Shown here one piece after another: positions 6,042 through 37,513 of a stretch of DNA of 64,000 nt (its first letter is position 1; the number at the start of each line of letters is the position of its first letter). This DNA comes from Candidatus Kuenenia stuttgartensis (lineage in GTDB: Bacteria > Planctomycetota > UBA11346). The stretch spans positions 15,454 to 79,453 of the forward strand of contig CAMCMZ010000003.1 in the NCBI GenBank assembly GCA_945876185.1, read 5' to 3'. Under the pieces are notes generated by a model, which was given only the letters and a program-made list of their open reading frames with translations, was not told the DNA's origin and did not search any database. The position numbers and the translations under genes were made by a program.

Positions 6042-7808
6042 ATGCCGAACCTGATCGCATTCTTGTCCGGGACCGGATCGGTCCCCGTTTCCGACGCCCT
6101 CGTCCTCGGATTGGCCGGGGCGTTGGCTCTGCTGGCTATCGTCAGCATCGTCCTGGTTTTCCAGTGTCGTCGCCAATGCCGGCGCTTGGCCAGCGGTGAA
6201 CGCCAGGTCGATGCCGTCTTCGGCCTAGCCAAGGGATTCGTGTTGATGCGGCTGCATCGTGCGACCGATGGCGCGATCCGCATCGACCGTCTCAGTCCCT
6301 CGATCGAGGATCTGCTTGGCCGCCCGGCGGCCGAATACCGGCAGGATCCCACGTTGCTGTTCAGCCAGATTCTGAGTGACGATCGCGATCGAGTGCTCGC
6401 CGATCTCGCTGCGGGTCTCAGCGCGGGCCTGCGTATTGAGAGCCGGTTCCGCGTCGTCCATCGCCTCGAATCTGCTCCGCGCACCTGCCATCTCGTTGCC
6501 CAGCCGCATCCGGTTGCGGGTGGCCAGGCCTGTCTGGCGCTGGTCCTCGACCTCACCTCCGAGGCGAAAACCAAGGCGGACCATGATCTGCTGCAAGAGA
6601 AGGTCCAGGTCGCGCTGCGGCACGAGAGCCTGGGGTTCCTCGCCAGCGGCATCGCGCATGACTTCAACAACCTGCTCGCCGCCATCCGGGGCAACGCGGA
6701 GCTGCTGGGGTCGCTGGTCGCCGACGTGCCCACCGGCGCGCGTCGGCTGCAACGGGTGCTCGACGGCGTCGACCGCGCGAGCGGCCTGGTGCGCCAGATT
6801 CTCGCCTATGCCGGCAAATGTGCGGTGGTGGCGAAACCGTTGGATCTGGCCAAGGAATCAAACGAACTGCGCGCGCTGCTGCGGCACGGCCTGCCCAAGG
6901 GGGTGACGCTTGAGATCCAGGCCGAACCTGGGCTGCCGCTGATCACCTTCGATCCGGCCCAGTTCCAGCAGATCCTGGTCAACCTGGTGGTGAACGCGGC
7001 GGAGTCCTACAACGGCACGCCGGGCGTGGTCGAGGTAGGGCTGGCGCGCAATGGGACTGACCGCATCCGCATCACCATTCGCGATCAGGGTTGCGGCATG
7101 GACGACGCAGCACAGGCCAGCCTCTTCCGGCCCTACTTCACGACGAAGGTCAACGGCCACGGTCTCGGACTCGCCGCCGTGCACAGCATCATCGGGCAGA
7201 ATGGCGGTACGATCACCTGCGCCAGCCGATCCGGCCAAGGCACCACCTTCACCATCGACCTGCCGATTGGCAGTGCCGAGTCATCACCTGGCACCAGACG
7301 CCTGCAGGCCGGCAAGGGACGCCGGGCCCAGCTTATCCTGCTCGTCAGCGCCGACGCGGGAATGCGTACCGATCTCGCCGCGCTGCTCATCGAACTCGGC
7401 CACCTGAGCCAGGCTGCCGTTGGTGGCGATGCCGCGCTCACCTCGTTGGCCGCCAACCGGTTCAACGCCGTCATCCTGGATCATCGCCTGGCTGGCTTCC
7501 TGGACACCCTGCGGGCCGAGCATCCGGATCTGCCGGTTGTCCTGATAGGCGGAAATGTGGGCAGGCCCAGCGATGCCGATAGAAACGCAGCGCGGAGCGA
7601 ACCGACGCTGTGCCGCCGGCTCGCCCATCCCTGCACCCAGATGCAATTGTCGTTCGCCCTGCGCGAATTGGCGGTTGGCCTGCCCGGCAGCGATTCGGAC
7701 AGCACCAATTCAGCCAAGGTGCTCGCTGGCGTGATGCGGCACCAGTTGGTGCCGGGCGGCAGTCCACCGCTGCCGGCGGCGGACCGGGCCGAGATCGAAC
7801 GCGGGTGA
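6042..7808 (+). CDS. Hybrid sensor histidine kinase (TM, PAS-like, HisKA, HATPase, degenerate receiver)
   Basis: H-box GIAHDFNNLL, N-box NLVVNA, DQGCGM, FTTK, GHGLGL; C-terminal receiver-like ILLV...VILD. Confidence 0.9.
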   Translation: MPNLIAFLSGTGSVPVSDALVLGLAGALALLAIVSIVLVFQCRRQCRRLASGERQVDAVFGLAKGFVLMRLHRATDGAIRIDRLSPSIEDLLGRPAAEYRQDPTLLFSQILSDDRDRVLADLAAGLSAGLRIESRFRVVHRLESAPRTCHLVAQPHPVAGGQACLALVLDLTSEAKTKADHDLLQEKVQVALRHESLGFLASGIAHDFNNLLAAIRGNAELLGSLVADVPTGARRLQRVLDGVDRASGLVRQILAYAGKCAVVAKPLDLAKESNELRALLRHGLPKGVTLEIQAEPGLPLITFDPAQFQQILVNLVVNAAESYNGTPGVVEVGLARNGTDRIRITIRDQGCGMDDAAQASLFRPYFTTKVNGHGLGLAAVHSIIGQNGGTITCASRSGQGTTFTIDLPIGSAESSPGTRRLQAGKGRRAQLILLVSADAGMRTDLAALLIELGHLSQAAVGGDAALTSLAANRFNAVILDHRLAGFLDTLRAEHPDLPVVLIGGNVGRPSDADRNAARSEPTLCRRLAHPCTQMQLSFALRELAVGLPGSDSDSTNSAKVLAGVMRHQLVPGGSPPLPAADRAEIERG

Positions 7809-22100: not shown

Positions 22101-22926
22101 TGCGCACGGCACGCTGCGCGAGTTGTCGCGCGCGCCGTCGCCCACCGCGCTGACTTACACCATCGGCCCGATGGCGATCCGCAGCGAGGGCGGCAAACGC
22201 ACGCAGTACGTGCTGCTCAACGCCCGTGGCCGGGCCGAGGTCGAGGTGGTGCACGACGCCCAGCGGCGCCTGGATGCGGCCATCGCCGCCGGAGCCGTGA
22301 TCCTGCCCAAGGGTTCGCCGCCGCCGCGCTGGGTCGGCAGCTACGAACAGAAACAGAAGGCCGACGAAACCATGACCTGGGTGATCGCCGCATCGATGGC
22401 GGTGATGCTGGTGCTGATCTACCTCGGCACGCGATCGCTGCTGACCACCTCGATCATCATCACCTGCAACGTCACCGTCACCACCGCCGGCGGCTTTATC
22501 GCGGTGTGGTTGTCCGGGGTCGAGATGACCACTGCGGTCATTGTCGGCTTCCTCGTCCTGCTCGGTGTGATGTTCAACGACGGCATCCTGCTCGGCACGT
22601 ATCTGCACGACCAGTTCCGCATCCCACCCCGGAACCTGGAGGAGATGCACCATCGCATCTTCACCGCCGGCTTGCGCCGCCGCCGCCCCGCCCTGATGAC
22701 CAACCTGACCACCCTGCTGGCGCTGGTGCCGATCCTCTGGAGCGAAGGCCGCGGCGCCGAGGTCATGCGCCCGATGGTGCTTCCGGTCATCGGCGGGATG
22801 ATCGCGGATCTGATCAGCCTGTTCTCTGTGCCGGTCTTCTATGCCTGGTGGTGGGAGCGGAAACTGGCTCGGCCTGATCGCGACCAGTCGAACCTCCCGG
22901 AAGCACCAGAGACACCTCGGCCCTGA
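19192..22926 (+). CDS. cusA: Cu(I)/Ag(I) heavy-metal RND transporter CusA
   Basis: DAIPDLSDNQV, MSLAGIAIAIG; Met triad equivalents in LFMPS (21202), IGMIET (21352) and VMLSTG (21538); RRRPALMT. Confidence 0.92.
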   Translation: MIASAIRNPLITLAISLALVIAGIWAWKHVPVDAIPDLSDNQVIVWAEWPGKSAEDVDLQITSRLARELQGLPGVTTVRGMSLYGASYVYVIFDERRDLYDCRTRTLERLSQVQALMPAGVQARLGPDATAMGQVYAFTLQGRRDTESKRYVLDQVVVPALKGVPGVAEVAPVGGVVREYQIDVDPVRLEEQGLTVDMLMEAVQKSGRDVGAMSVEKSGVETMIRGLGFIRSLKDVENIVIRSNKARSAGLRLKDVAHVHLGGAVRQGILADAGQEQVGAIVAMRVREDPKAVIQAVKLRLAGLAPALGKEELTAVPFYDRSQLILETNTTLAHTLIEELIVTVLVIVVFLLHARASLVVAISLPLGVLTTFLAMHLMGVSANIMSLAGIAIAIGVMVDFGIVMTENITQHLVELQERRVKAGLEPPRSPFDPDVIAAVTTGAQEVSRALLTAAATTIIGFLPIFVLTDQAGRLFIPLAITKTLAIGGAVLFGMLLVPLLCRLLLPPWQVRKPVILGLAGLAGGAVFGWFVVHGFTLAFDHERWAITIPGFVVGPVLGALAAYVVWRLGRERLVSYEENPVSHAIHVGYDWAYTRIQRHRLAFTGTITAIALTGWLLGVGWQTLSWPLRQGVAAVGGDLATTTIDRALTRVFPGIGASFLPPLDEGSLLFMPSIPAHGGLGETLRVLKTQNQLIASVPEVAQVMGKMGRAETALDPAPIGMIETVVLLKPYAEWPLHEISRPDGSSERRPRTLAEVRQALGAISDIPGVAPSWLQPIETRVVMLSTGIKSKIALQILGDDNEAMERFAEQAEKIIQMVPGAVDVQMQREGGKPYGEIRLDQERMARFGITTEQVMQTVETALGGMPIVFSVEGTQRYGVRIRYSRERRDDFDEMGLLQVPIGPGQHGAIALQSLVAATVVHTVALDGLTAADWLAAQSLTIQRNTVVLAPDRIEVTLRPGDDLFRSIVRPAHGTLRELSRAPSPTALTYTIGPMAIRSEGGKRTQYVLLNARGRAEVEVVHDAQRRLDAAIAAGAVILPKGSPPPRWVGSYEQKQKADETMTWVIAASMAVMLVLIYLGTRSLLTTSIIITCNVTVTTAGGFIAVWLSGVEMTTAVIVGFLVLLGVMFNDGILLGTYLHDQFRIPPRNLEEMHHRIFTAGLRRRRPALMTNLTTLLALVPILWSEGRGAEVMRPMVLPVIGGMIADLISLFSVPVFYAWWWERKLARPDRDQSNLPEAPETPRP

Positions 22927-22961
22927 CGCGCCACCGCCGGGGCGCCGGCGATCCCAGGAAG

Positions 22962-23672
22962 TTACTTCCCTGCAATCCCAACCGGGCGAGCCAGGGCGAA
23001 CGCCTGCTCACGAAAAACGGAACGCCGGTTGATCTGCACCGCTTCCGCGCCGCCGTCGGCCCGGGTGCGCAGGCGGATCGTGCCGCGGCCCAGGCCGTCA
23101 CCGTCTTTGCGGGTGTCGTCGTCGTGGGGGATCGAGGTCGCGTCGATCACGGTGATCTGGTAGCGGTCGGGGCCATCCGGTCGGGCCTCGCTGTCGATGA
23201 TCACGACGTGCCCGGTCGGCCCGCCCGGCTTGGGGGCCGCGTACCGCCAGGCCACGACATCTCCGGGCCGCAGGCCTTTCACCTGGCCGACCGCCTGCCA
23301 CCCTTTGGCGCCGGCGGCGAAGGCCTGCTGGTAGTCCGCCGCCAACGGGCGGCGATGCCCCGCGCTGGGGGGAATGAACGCCAGGTGGTCGGGCAGTTCG
23401 TTTTTCAGGAGCCAGGTCAGCAGTCCAGAGCAGTCCGTCGTGACCGTACCTGATTGCAGGTCGATCGCGGTCTGGTGCGCGTAGCGGGTCGTCGTTGTAC
23501 CCGCGAGCAACCGGCGGGCGGCAGCGGAAAGGCGTTGCGCCGGTTCCATCGCCACGGCGGCAGGCCCGGTGGTGGCCGGCCCGGCAGCGGCCTGCGTCGT
23601 TGCCTGCTCAGCGGCGGATCGGTCGCCGGTGCAGGCCCACACCAGGCAACCGATGATGATGAGCTTTCGCAT
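22962..23672 (-). CDS. Secreted NlpC/P60-like cysteine amidase/peptidase
   Basis: DCSG, LRPGDVVAW and TGHVVI motifs; signal peptide from MRKLII. Confidence 0.65.
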   Translation of the reverse strand: MRKLIIIGCLVWACTGDRSAAEQATTQAAAGPATTGPAAVAMEPAQRLSAAARRLLAGTTTTRYAHQTAIDLQSGTVTTDCSGLLTWLLKNELPDHLAFIPPSAGHRRPLAADYQQAFAAGAKGWQAVGQVKGLRPGDVVAWRYAAPKPGGPTGHVVIIDSEARPDGPDRYQITVIDATSIPHDDDTRKDGDGLGRGTIRLRTRADGGAEAVQINRRSVFREQAFALARPVGIAGK

Positions 23673-23863
23673 CGTCGTTCTCGCTTTCGCCTTCGCTTTC
23701 GCCTTCGCCATCTCTGATTTTTCTCCGGCACGGGGCTGCGCTTCCCGGTGGTTTCGCACCGTGACGCCTTGGCCGGGGTTGGCAATGTGGGCGAACCCCT
23801 CAGGGGTTGGGCCGACGCGACGGACGGTGGCGGGACGGGTTCGCCGCGCAAAACTCCCCTGCC

Positions 23864-24694
23864 ATGGCCGACCCCACCGCCGCCCTCCGGCTCCGCCAGG
23901 TGTTCTACCGCGAAGCGGATCCGGGTTGGCAGGTCGATCGCCACCATCATGACGTGCACCAATGGTACGCCTGCCTGCGTGGCTGCTTGCGCGTGCGCCT
24001 GGGCGAACGGATCATCGAACTGGGCGCCGAACGATCGCTGATCGTGCCGCCGATGCAGGACCGGGAACTTCTCCAGGCGGGACGCTCGCTGGCCTACGTG
24101 GTGGCGATCTTCCACCCGGGGGGCATCGACCTGGAGCAGATCGCCGGCCGTGTCCTCGCGCTGCCTCCGGGTTTGCGCGCCGACTTCCACGCTTTGGTCG
24201 AGGAAATGCACCAGCCCGGGGTGGACAGCTCCTTCCTGGTTCAGGCGCTGCTTGGGCGCCTGCTCATCGGACTCAAGCGGGCGCTGGTCGCCCGGGGGGA
24301 TCCCTCTCCGGTGCTGTCGCCCTTGAACGCGGGGAGTCACGCCGAGGTGGTGCGTGCGGTCGACGCCTTTCTGGCCGCGCATCTGGCGCAACCGATCCAC
24401 CGAGCCGAGATCGCCGCCGCTGTGCGCTTGTCCGCCGCGCACCTCGCCCGGATCTACCGGGCTGCGGCCGGCCGTACGATCCTGGATCAGTTGACCGCCT
24501 TGCGGATCGCGCGGGCCAAAGCGCTCCTGCTCGAAAGCACGTTGTCGGTGACCCAGATCGCGGGTGCGGTCGGCATCGTATCGTTCAGCCATTTCGCCCG
24601 CACCTTCCGGTGTCAGGTCGGGATCAGCCCGTCCGACTACCGCCGCACCGGCGGACTGACCTGGGTCGGGCAGAACCGCCGCAGCAAGGATTAG
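23864..24694 (+). CDS. AraC-family transcriptional regulator
   Basis: Cupin HHHDVHQW; HTH IAAAVRLSAAHLARIY...IAGAVGIVSFSHFARTFRCQVGISPSDYR. Confidence 0.9.
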   Translation: MADPTAALRLRQVFYREADPGWQVDRHHHDVHQWYACLRGCLRVRLGERIIELGAERSLIVPPMQDRELLQAGRSLAYVVAIFHPGGIDLEQIAGRVLALPPGLRADFHALVEEMHQPGVDSSFLVQALLGRLLIGLKRALVARGDPSPVLSPLNAGSHAEVVRAVDAFLAAHLAQPIHRAEIAAAVRLSAAHLARIYRAAAGRTILDQLTALRIARAKALLLESTLSVTQIAGAVGIVSFSHFARTFRCQVGISPSDYRRTGGLTWVGQNRRSKD

Positions 24695-32868: not shown

Positions 32869-32884
32869 AGTTCCACGTGGAACG
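32869..32884. promoter_or_regulatory. parS: parS centromere site 1
   Basis: aGTTCCACGTGGAACg: perfect 14-bp palindromic core of the chromosomal parS consensus, upstream of parA. Confidence 0.9.
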
Positions 32885-32922: not shown

Positions 32923-32938
32923 CGTTCCACGTGGAACC
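32923..32938. promoter_or_regulatory. parS: parS centromere site 2
   Basis: cGTTCCACGTGGAACc, ending 1 bp before the parA ATG (32940). Confidence 0.9.
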
Positions 32939-32939
32939 C

Positions 32940-33674
32940 ATGGGATCAGTCATCGCGGTATCGAACCAGAAAGGCGGCGTGGGAAAGACCACGTCGGTGG
33001 TGAACTTGGCTGGCCTGTGCGCCTTGGCAGGCAAGCGGGTCCTGGTCATCGATTCCGATCCACAGGGGAATGCCACCAGTGTGTTGGCCCCTGGCCACAC
33101 CGGAGACTCGATCTACGCGCGCGGCAAACCCGTTGCCTCTACCATTGCTGGTGTGGACTGCTGTCCATCAGGTTCGGATCTGATCGACCAGGAACGTGCC
33201 TTGCATCGGGATGGCGACGGTCATTTTCGCCTCAGACAGTTGATGGATCCGTATAGACCCGTCTATGATGTGGTCTTCGTCGACTGTCCACCCAACTTGT
33301 CCTTTCTGCCGACCAATGCGTTGCTGGCCTCGGATTGGTTGTTGGTGCCTCTGCAGTGCGAGTACTACGCCCTGGAGGGCCTCAGCCAGTTGCTGGCCTA
33401 CATCGAGCACCTGCGCGAGACGGCCGGGGCGAAGATCGAGCTGGCCGGCGTGCTGCTGACCATGCATCAGCCAGAGTCACCCTTGGCGCGGCAGGTGGTA
33501 GATGAGATCCACCGTCACTTCCCCGACAACCCCTTCCGGCATCCCATTCCGCGCGACCTCGCTCTGGCCGCAGCCCCAAGCCACAGCGCCGCTGGCTATC
33601 TTTATGATCCGCTCAGCCCGGGTGCGGTGGCGTACCTCGCAGCCGCCAAGGAGCTTCTCCATGTCATTGGGTGA
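32940..33674 (+). CDS. parA: Chromosome partitioning ATPase ParA/Soj
   Basis: Deviant Walker A NQKGGVGKTT, DSDPQGNA, DCPP, PLQCEYYALEGL. Confidence 0.96.
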   Translation: MGSVIAVSNQKGGVGKTTSVVNLAGLCALAGKRVLVIDSDPQGNATSVLAPGHTGDSIYARGKPVASTIAGVDCCPSGSDLIDQERALHRDGDGHFRLRQLMDPYRPVYDVVFVDCPPNLSFLPTNALLASDWLLVPLQCEYYALEGLSQLLAYIEHLRETAGAKIELAGVLLTMHQPESPLARQVVDEIHRHFPDNPFRHPIPRDLALAAAPSHSAAGYLYDPLSPGAVAYLAAAKELLHVIG

Positions 33675-34650
33675 TAATTCTTTGGGTCGCAGCCTCAGCC
33701 AGGTCTTCGCCAAGACCCAGCGGCGCGAGCCGACCAAGGGCTATCTGGAGGTCGACCTCGGCCTCATCCGGCCGCCTGGCGCAAACCCGCGCACCGATTT
33801 CGACCAGTCGGCTCTGCAGGAGTTGGTCGCGAGCATCCGTCAGCATGGGATCCTCCAGCCTATCGTGGTGCTCAAGCGCGATCCCGGTTACGAGATCCTG
33901 TCCGGCGAACGGCGTTGGCGCGCCGCCAAGCTGGTCGGACTGGCCAAGGTGCCGGTGGTGGTGCGCGATGAGGAGGACCCCCGCCACGTCGCCGAGCTGC
34001 GGCTGGTCGAAAACGTCCAGCGTGCTGACCTCAACCCGCTTGAACTCGCCCGGGCCTATCAGGCGCTGATCGATGAACACGGCCTGTCGCACGACCAGGT
34101 TGCTGACCGCGTAGGCAAGGAGCGCTCCAGCATCACCAACGCACTGCGCCTGCTCGCTTTGCCACGTGCGATCCAGGATCTGGTCGCCGGTGGTGGCCTG
34201 AGCGCCGGCCACGCCAAGGCGCTCATGGGCATCACCGATCCTGTCTGGCAGACCGCCCTGGCCGAGCAGATCCAGGCCGAGGGCCTGTCGGTGCGCGAGG
34301 CTGAATCCTTGGCGAAGAACGGTCCGGTGCCATCTGTGGGCGAGCGCATCGCCGCCGCCCGCGCCGCCAAGGCGCCGCACCTGCGCGAGCTCGAGACCAA
34401 CCTCTACCACCTGTTCGGTAGCCGAGTCGCAATCCGGGAAAAAGCCGCTGGAAAGGGCGCGCTCACCATCCATTTCGACAGTCGTGAGCAGTTCCAGCGC
34501 GTGGTGGCGATCATGGATCGCTTCATCAAGCAGTCGAACCTGCGCTCGCCTGCCCCACCTGCCTCGACCCCGCCGAACTCGGCTACCCAAGGTCCGCTCG
34601 CACCAGCGCCGGTTGTCCCGGTACCTCCCCCGCCTGCTGCTACCGGTTGA
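33661..34650 (+). CDS. parB: Chromosome partitioning CTPase ParB/Spo0J
   Basis: LGRSL N-terminus, NPRTDF, GILQPIVV, GERRWRAA, ENVQRADLNPLE, HTH ERSSITN. Confidence 0.96.
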   Translation: MSLGDNSLGRSLSQVFAKTQRREPTKGYLEVDLGLIRPPGANPRTDFDQSALQELVASIRQHGILQPIVVLKRDPGYEILSGERRWRAAKLVGLAKVPVVVRDEEDPRHVAELRLVENVQRADLNPLELARAYQALIDEHGLSHDQVADRVGKERSSITNALRLLALPRAIQDLVAGGGLSAGHAKALMGITDPVWQTALAEQIQAEGLSVREAESLAKNGPVPSVGERIAAARAAKAPHLRELETNLYHLFGSRVAIREKAAGKGALTIHFDSREQFQRVVAIMDRFIKQSNLRSPAPPASTPPNSATQGPLAPAPVVPVPPPPAATG

Positions 34651-35210: not shown

Positions 35211-35798
35211 TTATCGATCCAAGCGAATTGGTTGTATATCCACGTACGGTATTTCGGGCCGCAGCTGGGGTGCGGATCTGGCGCCAGTACTTAAGCCGTC
35301 TTGGCGATCACCCAGCGCCAAACGGTCGCCTTTGGCCTTTGGCTTTTTCCCGAGGATATCCACCTCTTGCGTGGATGGCAGACGCATCCGACGCAGGGCG
35401 GCGGGTTCCGTCTGCTCGTCGAACCAGAGACGCGAATCCCATTCGCGATCACGGCTCGCATCGGCAAAGGCGCTCGCCGGCCGCTTCGGTGCTTTCGGGG
35501 TCATTGCCCGGGCTTCGGAGATAGCTTGTTGCAGACGCAGGATCTCCGGTCCGTTGCTGGTCGAGCTACCGTTCGCGATGTTACTGAGATCCTGGATGGA
35601 CTGACCCGCATCCAACACCTCGGCAACCGGGGCACCTGCTGTGCTCGCCTTGCCCAGGGCTGTGCCAGCGGCTCCGGTCAACGCGTCCGCTGCGACCCCT
35701 TGGGGCGCTGTAACCGCTTGGATGGCCTGACCGATACAGCCAGACAAGGGCAAGCCGACTGCCCCGAGCATCAGCGCGATGAGAGCTCGCGAACGCAT
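35211..35798 (-). CDS. Hypothetical lipoprotein
   Basis: MRSR + hydrophobic stretch + LSGC lipobox. Confidence 0.55.
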   Translation of the reverse strand: MRSRALIALMLGAVGLPLSGCIGQAIQAVTAPQGVAADALTGAAGTALGKASTAGAPVAEVLDAGQSIQDLSNIANGSSTSNGPEILRLQQAISEARAMTPKAPKRPASAFADASRDREWDSRLWFDEQTEPAALRRMRLPSTQEVDILGKKPKAKGDRLALGDRQDGLSTGARSAPQLRPEIPYVDIQPIRLDR

Positions 35799-35889
35799 AT
35801 GGTCGAAAGCGTCGGAAACCCCCTCACCCTGCCAAGCCCCTGCTTCTGCTTCCCGCGTCCTGCTTGCGCTTCTGTGTACTATTGCGTCC

Positions 35890-36380
35890 GGCTGCTTTTC
35901 GACGCGACAGGGTGTTAAATTTTCTGCGACTCCAGCCGTTTCCGGACGAAAGCTCCTGGTTTCCACCACCCATGCGGTACCTGATCACGGATCCGGTCGG
36001 ACACGGGTCATATATTGGTTCTTTCCGACGCCAGCGTTTCTCCTATATCTAATTGTAGTAACTATACTTAAATGGTTTCCGACGATTTCAACATAGCAGA
36101 GGGAGAAGAAGTATTTATATATCTGACCTTACCATAAGAAACCTCTCCCCTGAACCGCTCACAGTCGTACTGACCTCCAGATCAGCACCCGGTAAACCCT
36201 ACCAGCACACTACCAGCACCCGGCCATGATCTGACCATCGCATCACCAACCTGTCTGGATCATCATCATCCCGGATCGCACGGGCGTGCTCCACCGTGCT
36301 CCACCCTCCTTCCTCGCTGCAATTCCCATCCGACCCACCATAACGGCACCAACGCCAAACCGCTTTTATCTCCTCTGGAA
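35890..36380. other. Candidate replication origin / AT-rich unwinding element upstream of dnaN
   Basis: 36041-36140 is 68% AT by count in a GC-rich window; repeated TTTCCGACG-like boxes; 3 kb from parS-parA-parB; immediately 5' of dnaN; no canonical DnaA box seen. Confidence 0.5.
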
Positions 36381-36385
36381 CCGCC

Positions 36386-37513
36386 ATGCATCTCCTCTGC
36401 CAGCGCGACATCCTCCTGGCCGCCATCCAGGCGGCCGACGCCATCGTTCCGACCAACTCGACCAAACCGATCTTGAGCAACCTCCTCATCGAGGCGCTGG
36501 AAGACCGCGTCGAGATCGTGGCCACCGACACCCAGGTCGGCCTGCGCGCCGTGGTACGCCGGATTGAGGTCCGTGCCCCCGGCCAGGCGGTCGTCAACGC
36601 ACGGCAGATCTCGGCGATCCTGAAGGAGTCGCAGTCGAGCACGGTGAACATCCACCTGGAAACCGGCACCGACCGCCACCTCATGAAGGTCGAACTGTCC
36701 GATGGTCTGTACCAAGTGCCCGCGCTCGTCGGTGAAAGCCTGCCGCCGATATCGCCGTTCCCGACCAGCCACGAGACCGTGCGCCTGATGGCCAGCCGCC
36801 TCGATGAGATGCTCAACCAGACCGCATTCGCGATGGATAAAGACCGCACCAGCGCCGTGCTGTCCGGTCTCAGCCTGTCCTACGGCAACAGCGAATTCAT
36901 CCTAGCTGCGACCGATGGCAAGGTGCTGTGCGAGGCCGTCGAGCGCGCCGACATCTTCAATGTCAAAGATCGCGTCAACGTGGTCGTACCTGCCGGCACC
37001 GTGGGTCACCTGCAGCGCATCATGTCGGCGGCGCGTCCTGATACGGTGGAGATCACCATCGCGGGCAAACTCGCCTTCCTGCGTCTGGTCACCCTCACCG
37101 GACTCCATATCGAATTGTCGAGCCGGCTCGTTGAAGGAACGTTCCCCTCCTACCGCGCCGCACTGCCCAGCGCAGGCGGCAGCGCACGCGTGACCTTCCC
37201 TACCGCCGATCTCGCGGCCGCTGTGCGTCGTGTCGCGCTCATGGTCAGCCAGACCAGTCGCGGCGTGGTCATGCAGCTTGAACCCGGCCAGGCGACCTTC
37301 ACCAACCTGAACTACACCAACGGCAGCGCGCGCATTCCGGTGCCCTGCGAATACGCCGGCGCGCCGGTCAAACTCGGCGTCGACGTGAAGTACCTCGGTG
37401 ACGTGTTGCGCGTCTATCGCAGTGATCACATCGGCATCGACCTCGGTCGCGGCTTGGTCATGCGCGAGCCCGACGCGACCTACCTGATCATGCCGATCAG
37501 CCTGCCGAACTGA
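36386..37513 (+). CDS. dnaN: DNA polymerase III beta sliding clamp
   Basis: STKPILSNLLI, ATDTQV, AMDKDRTSAVLSG, ATDGKVL, SRLVEGTFPSY, YLIMP. Confidence 0.95.
   Translation: MHLLCQRDILLAAIQAADAIVPTNSTKPILSNLLIEALEDRVEIVATDTQVGLRAVVRRIEVRAPGQAVVNARQISAILKESQSSTVNIHLETGTDRHLMKVELSDGLYQVPALVGESLPPISPFPTSHETVRLMASRLDEMLNQTAFAMDKDRTSAVLSGLSLSYGNSEFILAATDGKVLCEAVERADIFNVKDRVNVVVPAGTVGHLQRIMSAARPDTVEITIAGKLAFLRLVTLTGLHIELSSRLVEGTFPSYRAALPSAGGSARVTFPTADLAAAVRRVALMVSQTSRGVVMQLEPGQATFTNLNYTNGSARIPVPCEYAGAPVKLGVDVKYLGDVLRVYRSDHIGIDLGRGLVMREPDATYLIMPISLPN

Follow-up and report, generated by a model that had tools for sequence, protein, structure and literature searches.

Putative chromosomal origin with lineage-specific DnaA boxes upstream of dnaN in an uncultured family of Planctomycetota

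Introduction

The locus described here is the 585-bp gap upstream of dnaN in a 64,000-nucleotide stretch of DNA (the window) from an uncultured Planctomycetota bacterium, and its closest described counterpart is the basal unwinding system (BUS) of bacterial replication origins. In Bacillus subtilis, the unwinding region of oriC (incC, between dnaA and dnaN) consists of DnaA-boxes 6 and 7, DnaA-trios and an AT-rich 27-mer (PMC6669920, PMC8287927, PMC10721633); the trio consensus is 3'-GAT-5' (PMC10721633). By rule, a BUS comprises a DnaA box, a spacer of at most 16 bp and at least three NAN triplets, which lie on the strand where the box reads TTATCCACA. Boxes most often come as a tandem pair whose upstream member is the stronger, and spacers are most often about 13 bp long; the published search admits divergent, species-specific box motifs with up to 2 mismatches (PMC8287927). 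Thermotoga maritima has a 12-mer DnaA box (PMC10316083; noted in PMC7561715). On the protein side, the base-contact residues of DnaA are R399, P423, D433, H434, T435 and H439 (PMC2533591, PMC7561715); of the box, TnCACA is read by the helix at 434-451 and TTA by Arg399 (PMC5742627).

At the locus studied here, both the box sequence and the place of the initiator gene differ from the B. subtilis plan. Cyanobacteria have the DnaA box TTTTCCACA, and origins lie apart from dnaA in Escherichia coli (oriC, gidA-mioC) and in Caulobacter (Cori, hemE). A first reading of the window, made from the sequence without database searches (the original prediction), had proposed a non-canonical oriC that uses either divergent initiator boxes or a different initiator. 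Our analysis supports the former: the box type is family-wide, the module before dnaN is conserved, and the GC skew of one relative (G015) switches at dnaN. The latter finds no support, as a complete DnaA is encoded and its DNA-reading residues are changed in fit with the changed box. We put the probability that positions 35801-36140 are the chromosomal oriC of this bacterium at about 75%. The analysis establishes the features of the sequence and how they are conserved, which residues have changed, and a skew switch in a single relative; DnaA would bind the boxes and unwind the DNA at this site.

Results

The box module and its closest counterparts

The window (C3:15454-79453) belongs to a metagenome-assembled genome (MAG) of 3.8 Mb in 123 contigs, 82% complete and with about 66% GC. 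The gap before dnaN holds several 9-mers that are best read as putative lineage-specific DnaA boxes, together with the elements expected of an unwinding region. They are as follows, with G001 denoting the sister genome.

35801-35809, minus strand: box CTTTCGACC, second of a minus-strand tandem pair; scored at 12.7 bits by a matrix from which the own genus was left out; fully conserved (100%) in G001; abuts the start codon of the divergent gene to the left
35810-35818, minus strand: box TTTCCGACG, first of the minus-strand tandem pair; 11.4 bits
35896-35904, plus strand: box TTTTCGACG, without mismatch to the family consensus; 12.8 bits; also kept in G001
35944-35952, minus strand: weak box CTTTCGTCC; 8.7 bits; partly conserved in G001; overlaps TTTCCGGACG (35939-35948)
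36022-36030, plus strand: box TTTCCGACG, by direct reading; TTTCCGAC conserved in G001
36076-36084, plus strand: module box 1, TTTCCGACG, the stronger, upstream box; 12.4 bits
36085-36093, plus strand: module box 2, ATTTCAACA, degenerate, abutting box 1; 9.3 bits
36094-36102, plus strand: spacer TAGCAGAGG; 5 nt in the G001 alignment, 9 nt counted to the uninterrupted triplet run
36103-36114, plus strand: DnaA-trio-like run GAG AAG AAG TAT; four consecutive NAN triplets, free of C
36112-36140, no strand: AT-rich stretch (TATTTATATATC...), candidate DNA-unwinding element; 92% AT at 36113-36124; ATTTATATATC identical in G001

The module at 36076-36123 thus reads TTTCCGACG-ATTTCAACA-TAGCAGAGG-GAG AAG AAG TAT-TTATATATC, and the minus-strand pair at 35801-35818 forms a 19-nt inverted copy of 36074-36092. 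The 9-mers quoted in the original prediction are present on direct reading, namely TTTCCGACG at 36022-36030 and 36076-36084 and TTTTCGACG at 35896-35904; the quoted string TTTCCGGACG at 35939 is there as well, and is better read as the minus-strand box CTTTCGTCC at 35944-35952. Overlooked at that time were the minus-strand pair at 35801-35818, the degenerate box ATTTCAACA at 36085-36093 and the purine triplet run after it. TTTCCGACG has 26 copies in the whole assembly (both strands), and three of them fall within 270 bp here, where about 0.002 would be expected. The earlier figure of 68% AT for 36041-36140 is reproduced by computation; 17 regions of 100 bp reach that value in the 3.8-Mb assembly. 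The reported absence of a TT(A/T)TNCACA box also holds, with none on this contig. TTATCCACA has only three copies in the genome, which are scattered, and no cluster of canonical DnaA boxes was found anywhere in it.

Measured by the BUS rule, TTTCCGACG is too far from the E. coli box TTATCCACA for a limit of two mismatches, as it differs at positions 3, 4, 6 and 9. Compared with the family motif TTTTCGAC(A/G), which we infer to be the DnaA box, box 1 has one mismatch and box 2 (ATTTCAACA) has two. At least three NAN triplets lie within 16 bp, in a run that starts 9 bp after box 2, although this rule alone is unspecific here. For tandem boxes, the BUS plan has the upstream one closer to the consensus and about 10-13 bp between the stronger box and the trios. 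In agreement with this form, box 1, the upstream one, scores 12.4 bits against 9.3 bits for box 2, and its end is 14 bp from the triplets when aligned to G001, or 18 bp when counted up to the uninterrupted run.

The module resembles the B. subtilis BUS in its same-orientation tandem boxes, short spacer, same-strand NAN triplets (NAG/TAG-rich and 3'-GAT-5'-like) and AT-rich DNA, as well as in its position directly upstream of dnaN, its direction towards dnaN and its stronger upstream box. It differs in that the box has G at position 6 (often with C at position 4), the boxes abut without a gap, dnaA lies elsewhere and the triplet run counts four, and it is a prediction from sequence. As in T. 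maritima and cyanobacteria, DnaA and its box have changed jointly across a lineage, the box in its sequence and the protein in its base-contact residues, and the logic of the origin is kept. Unlike that of T. maritima, the box here is still a 9-mer that departs from TTWTNCACA at position 6 alone, and in DnaA Arg399 and His434 are kept while Asp433, Thr435 and His439 change. As in E. coli oriC and Caulobacter Cori, the initiator gene does not adjoin the origin; unlike in these two, the origin here appears to have stayed on the ancestral dnaN side while dnaA moved.

A family-wide box and a conserved module

The dnaN locus was retrieved from 40 relatives. In the sister genome G001 (DnaN 95% identical), the gap has diverged, yet the boxes and the block 'GAAGA.G.ATTTATATATC' are kept. 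An unbiased k-mer analysis of the 330 nt before dnaN in 23 family genomes gave TTTCGAC, GTTTTCG and TTCGACG as the most enriched words, together with GAAGAAG, and an iterated weight matrix gave (A/G)G-TTTTCGAC-(A/G), which is unchanged when our own genus is left out. The family consensus TTTTCGACA is equivalent to TTWTNCACA with C6 replaced by G, so that 8 of the 9 positions match; in our own genus, the box is often TTTCCGACG (often with C at position 4). As a control on position 6, the same regions of the family contain TTNTNGAC with G 39 times, versus C 4 times, A once and T 3 times. The corresponding counts for outgroup Planctomycetota are C 6 and G 2.

The order of a strong box, an abutting weaker box, 4-5 nt (often G-rich), triplets and AT-rich DNA is found in about 18 of 21 other-genus relatives, and the abutting box arrangement itself in 15-18 relatives. 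One relative (L023) has TTTTCGACG-TTATCGACG-cggg-TAG AAG TAG TAG TAG TAC, and another (L018) has AATTTGACA-gggtt-GAT GAT GAT GAT. In the family alignment, A occupies every third column in 11-13 of 16 sequences, with G in the next column and C nearly absent; the run consists of C-free NAG/NAT triplets, and AT-rich sequence follows the triplets in the relatives. The outgroup planctomycete G036, whose DnaA is canonical, has TTGTCCAC-TTATCCACC, gcccc and TAC TAG GGC TAT GAA GGA TTTATATAC about 70 nt before dnaN. Judged by its sequence, this outgroup has the same module at the homologous place, built with canonical boxes.

Specificity of the module in own and related genomes

A module profile was built from 16 other-genus relatives, with our own genus excluded. 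When the whole own genome was searched with it (nhmmer), 36075-36113 ranked first, on the plus strand and in the expected orientation, as a weak match with an E-value of 1.3. A sequence-only Infernal model gave the same site as the best match in the window (10.7 bits, E 0.056), and the inverted pair at 35801-35819 came second. Among the 48 family genomes searched with the module model, there was mostly one match per genome, and dnaN lies directly beside the match in 27 of the 30 loci fetched; this includes the top match in 11 of 13 genomes outside the training set.

An independent box matrix, made without our own genus, placed the dnaN gap at the top of the box clusters in the own genome at both the 8- and 10-bit thresholds, by a margin that is not wide. 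Other clusters (C18, C7 and C1) were rejected: their DNA is coding or AT-rich, and nothing there points to DnaA. The generic BUS rule was likewise discarded as a genome-wide discriminator of the locus for being too unspecific (about 65 sites). Contig C7 of the own genome (G000) has, at 22400-24200, a stretch of about 1.9 kb that is AT-richer, lacks an open reading frame (ORF) of high third-position GC and contains several strong box-matrix matches; it may be a mobile or non-coding element.

DnaA proteins and the recognition helix

The window contains no dnaA, as the original prediction had noticed for the locus, and two homologues are encoded elsewhere, on C10 and C42. P0001 on C10 is a complete DnaA of 501 aa, and P0002 is a 401-aa paralogue at C42:13001-14206 (L006 8002-9207). 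In Pfam, P0001 scores 159.8 bits for Bac_DnaA and 67.5 bits for Bac_DnaA_C, and P0002 scores 99.3 and 77.3 bits, all above the cut-offs. All of the nearest DnaA homologues come from MAGs that carry the label Planctomycetes or Planctomycetota. The Walker A, Walker B, arginine-finger and sensor II motifs of P0001 are of the standard type, as read from its sequence and from an alignment with B. subtilis DnaA.

It had been suggested that dnaA be located and its domain IV examined; the protein from C10 is altered at base-contact residues 433, 435 and 423. In a gap-free alignment with domain IV of E. coli DnaA (1J1V), R399 is R, P423 is S, D433 is S, H434 is H, T435 is A and H439 is H in P0001. Neither protein has the complete canonical set R399, P423, D433, H434, T435, H439, which reads R, S, S, H, A, H in P0001 and R, I, D, H, A, H in P0002. 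Among the 121 closest clade homologues, position 433 is Ser in 83, Gly in 17, Asn in 17 and Asp in none, R399 and H434 are invariant, and H439 is mostly replaced by Tyr. The signature is mostly KSH(S/A)SV in the family orthologues and GGRDH(T/S)TV in outgroup planctomycetes. The changed part of the box, on the TnCACA side, is the part read by the changed residues, and its unchanged T-rich 5' part is read by the conserved Arg399. We are slightly inclined to think that the Asp433 change underlies the G6 preference, a causal link suggested by this correspondence.

P0002 keeps the signature GGRDHATV, has a weakened Walker A motif (GKS), has no sensor-II arginine and lacks domain I. A second DnaA homologue of this type is present in every family genome searched, and it may have a regulatory role on canonical boxes. 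In one relative (L046, G012), two canonical-type boxes, GGTTTTCCACA, stand 216 and 99 nt upstream of dnaA, and the DnaA of this relative carries the Ser433 signature; these boxes are possible targets of the canonical-signature paralogue. No equivalent of the GGTTTTCCACA-type canonical boxes was seen before our own dnaA.

GC skew and the position of dnaA

GC skew is noise on all large contigs of the own genome, and the same is true of the high-GC (67%) relatives G002 and G018. The family member G015 has 43% GC and a strong skew. On its contig C1, skew is negative over the first 7 kb and positive over the next 165 kb, with the cumulative minimum at C1:7462; dnaN lies at 6655-7794 on the minus strand and the module just beyond 7794. 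The origin-type switch is thus within about 0.5-5 kb of the dnaN 5' end. The dnaA gene of G015 lies at 741 kb on the 1.56-Mb contig C11, in a region of uniformly negative skew (620-960 kb) without a switch. Where skew can be measured, therefore, it is dnaN rather than dnaA that coincides with the origin-type switch. The only switch near this dnaA, at about 570-620 kb of C11, has terminus polarity and lies about 150 kb from the gene, an unusual place for an initiator gene.

dnaA adjoins dnaN in most outgroup Planctomycetota; all family genomes have them far apart or on separate contigs. The simplest account would be that dnaA moved away and the origin stayed before dnaN, beside a conserved divergent small gene.

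Neighbouring genes and other features of the gap

The gene order is smpB, two parS-like palindromes, parA, parB, a 164-aa ORF, the divergent small gene, the 585-bp gap, dnaN, a CCA-adding enzyme gene and ppdK. As to origin marker genes, dnaN adjoins the gap, and parA, parB and the parS-like palindromes lie 1.1-3.2 kb to its left. The features outside the box module are listed below.

32870-32883, no strand: parS-like palindrome GTTCCACGTGGAAC, copy 1; one of two copies in the 3.8-Mb assembly
32924-32937, no strand: parS-like palindrome GTTCCACGTGGAAC, copy 2; ends 2 nt ahead of the parA ATG
32940-33674, plus strand: parA, start taken as the ATG at 32940, MGSVIAVSNQKGGVGKTT; AAA_31 and CbiA/ParA-type ATPase, E 2e-43
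33664-34650, plus strand: parB, with ParB_N, HTH_ParB and ParB_C domains; exact start uncertain
35211-35798, minus strand: divergent small gene with a lipoprotein-type signal (...LSGC), ATG at 35798; no Pfam family; left border of the origin region
36066-36075, plus strand: ACTTA-N5 element, found by eye, directly ahead of module box 1
36184-36305, plus strand: local tandem or near-tandem duplications CAGCACCCGG, CTACCAGCAC and GTGCTCCACC, two copies each; absent or single-copy in G001 (indel there)
36386-37513, plus strand: dnaN (DNA polymerase III beta clamp), with all three beta-clamp domains detected

The original prediction placed parS-parA-parB before dnaN. Domain matches confirm parA, parB and dnaN; the parS assigned there is not the canonical 16-mer but a variant palindrome. 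The canonical parS TGTTTCACGTGAAACA has no match in the genome at up to 2-3 mismatches. GTTCCACGTGGAAC is a perfect 14-bp palindrome that agrees with TGTTTCACGTGAAACA at 12 of 16 positions. Its copies are 54 bp apart, both lie 3 kb from the dnaN gap, and there is no third copy genome-wide. This suggests that GTTCCACGTGGAAC is a lineage-specific parS variant and a candidate ParB site.

A gene of the same position and orientation as 35211-35798 was read from the sequences upstream of dnaN in most family relatives. In our genus, the tandem box pair abuts its start codon, and DnaA occupancy may therefore repress it. An element like 'CTTA N3-5 GG' also precedes the first box in G001 and in L009, L010, L012, L013, L020, L024, L025, L027 and L028 (by eye); the ACTTA-N5 element has no counterpart in the published BUS description. 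The dnaN-side repeats CAGCACCCGG/CTACCAGCAC/GTGCTCCACC that had been drawn into the predicted origin are indeed present twice each at 36184-36305. We reject them as functional elements because they are lineage-specific duplications, not conserved in the sister genome. They put the module about 270 nt from dnaN in this genus, compared with 50-100 nt in most relatives. A promoter and terminator consensus scan and an Rfam search of the intergenic region returned nothing relevant.

The sister-genome record L007 (CAZZJC010000037.1; DnaN 95% identical) carries the label 'uncultured Candidatus Kuenenia sp.'. Kuenenia genomes are low in GC. Since this genus belongs to a family of high-GC Planctomycetota MAGs, the label of the sister genome is probably wrong.

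Discussion

We propose the following mechanism for initiation at this locus. DnaA, encoded on the distant contig C10, would bind the seven 9-bp lineage-specific boxes with the consensus TTTTCGAC(A/G). The right-hand abutting pair at 36076-36093 would then position an ATP-DnaA filament on the triplet run at 36103-36114, and this filament would open the AT-rich stretch after the triplets, to about 36140, as in the BUS. The changed box would be paired with a changed domain IV surface, in which Asp433 is replaced by Ser, Thr435 by Ala and Pro423 by Ser, and Arg399 and His434 are kept. In the family, dnaA would have left its ancestral dnaA-dnaN position, with the origin remaining before dnaN, 3 kb from the variant parS pair and parAB.

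Several observations weigh against this assignment. The module of the own genome is a weak match to the family profile (nhmmer, E 1.3 genome-wide), and in a multi-genome Infernal search with stricter filters the own genome gave no match at E up to 1. Comparably dense box clusters occur elsewhere in the genome, at C18:7424-7742 and C1:430-782 among others. About 65 sites in the own genome, mostly in coding DNA, have by chance a box with four or more NAN triplets after it, and the run here has just four triplets. The own contig has no switch of the origin type, with skew near zero before the locus and negative after it, amid noise throughout the genome. In G015, the contig extends only 7 kb to the left of the switch, with low GC in that part as well, and the boxes of this relative look more diverged (GTTTCTTTCA). 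Variant boxes are not enriched before dnaA, either at the two own dnaA genes or in 25 family genomes. Besides, it is possible that P0002 rather than P0001 binds the variant boxes, and the missing part of an assembly that is 82% complete could contain another box cluster.

The boxes might also serve a different purpose. DnaA boxes regulate genes as well as origins, and the 9-mers here could regulate the dnaN promoter and the divergent gene, as sites for DnaA or otherwise, with the true origin elsewhere, possibly in the unassembled 18%. The left box pair abuts the start codon of the divergent gene, the module of many relatives is just 50-100 nt before dnaN, where the promoter and 5' untranslated region must also be, and the own contig lacks a skew switch. 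We consider this unlikely, however, because the origin-type switch of G015 lies no more than about 0.5-5 kb from the dnaN 5' end, with no switch at its dnaA, and because the full order of box pair, triplets and AT-rich DNA is found in the right orientation and essentially as a single copy per genome. In addition, no sigma-70-type promoter consensus was found in 35600-36500, and there is no canonical or variant box cluster near either dnaA gene.

That the 9-mers bind a transcription factor unrelated to DnaA, and the AT tract is merely a divergent promoter, is quite improbable. DnaA binding is a prediction here, and the boxes depart from TTWTNCACA at an otherwise nearly invariant position; but TTTTCGACA fits TTWTNCACA at 8 of 9 positions, an outgroup has canonical boxes at the homologous place, and the DnaA of the clade is altered in exactly the helix that reads this part of the box. 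A simple operator would also leave the 3-nt periodic, C-free run after the boxes unexplained. We give very little credence to an origin fired by a non-DnaA initiator, for which the lack of dnaA and canonical boxes at the locus could be cited: every family genome encodes a complete DnaA with intact ATPase motifs, the boxes are DnaA-box-like, the module has the layout of the DnaA-dependent BUS, and no candidate alternative initiator was seen beside the locus.

If the dnaN gap is the DnaA-dependent oriC of this bacterium, it joins an ordinary origin layout to a lineage-specific box and a matching change of the initiator; it is not a new kind of system. On balance, we marginally favour the broader view that the whole clade has re-coded the recognition between DnaA and its box, which is nearly universal in other bacteria. 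The box has G6, Asp433 is lost (Ser, Asn or Gly), Thr435 and His439 are mostly changed, and Arg399, His434 and the BUS layout are kept. At the same time, a second paralogue with the canonical signature and a degenerate ATPase is retained, and dnaA is far from the origin, in one relative near a terminus-like switch. Searches of full-text literature, in a collection lacking most subscription journals, turned up neither a planctomycete oriC nor a G6 box.

Origin-prediction tools rely on E. coli-type boxes and dnaA, and would thus miss or misplace oriC in this large uncultured planctomycete family. The family box motif, together with dnaN as an anchor, provides a usable origin rule for these genomes. 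Natural variation has paired a C6-to-G change of the box with the replacement of Asp433 by Ser, Asn or Gly in the recognition helix, and this combination offers a ready-made test of box reading by DnaA. The finding also adds to the evidence for an ancestral layout of two boxes, trios and AT-rich DNA, kept even in a lineage whose box has drifted.

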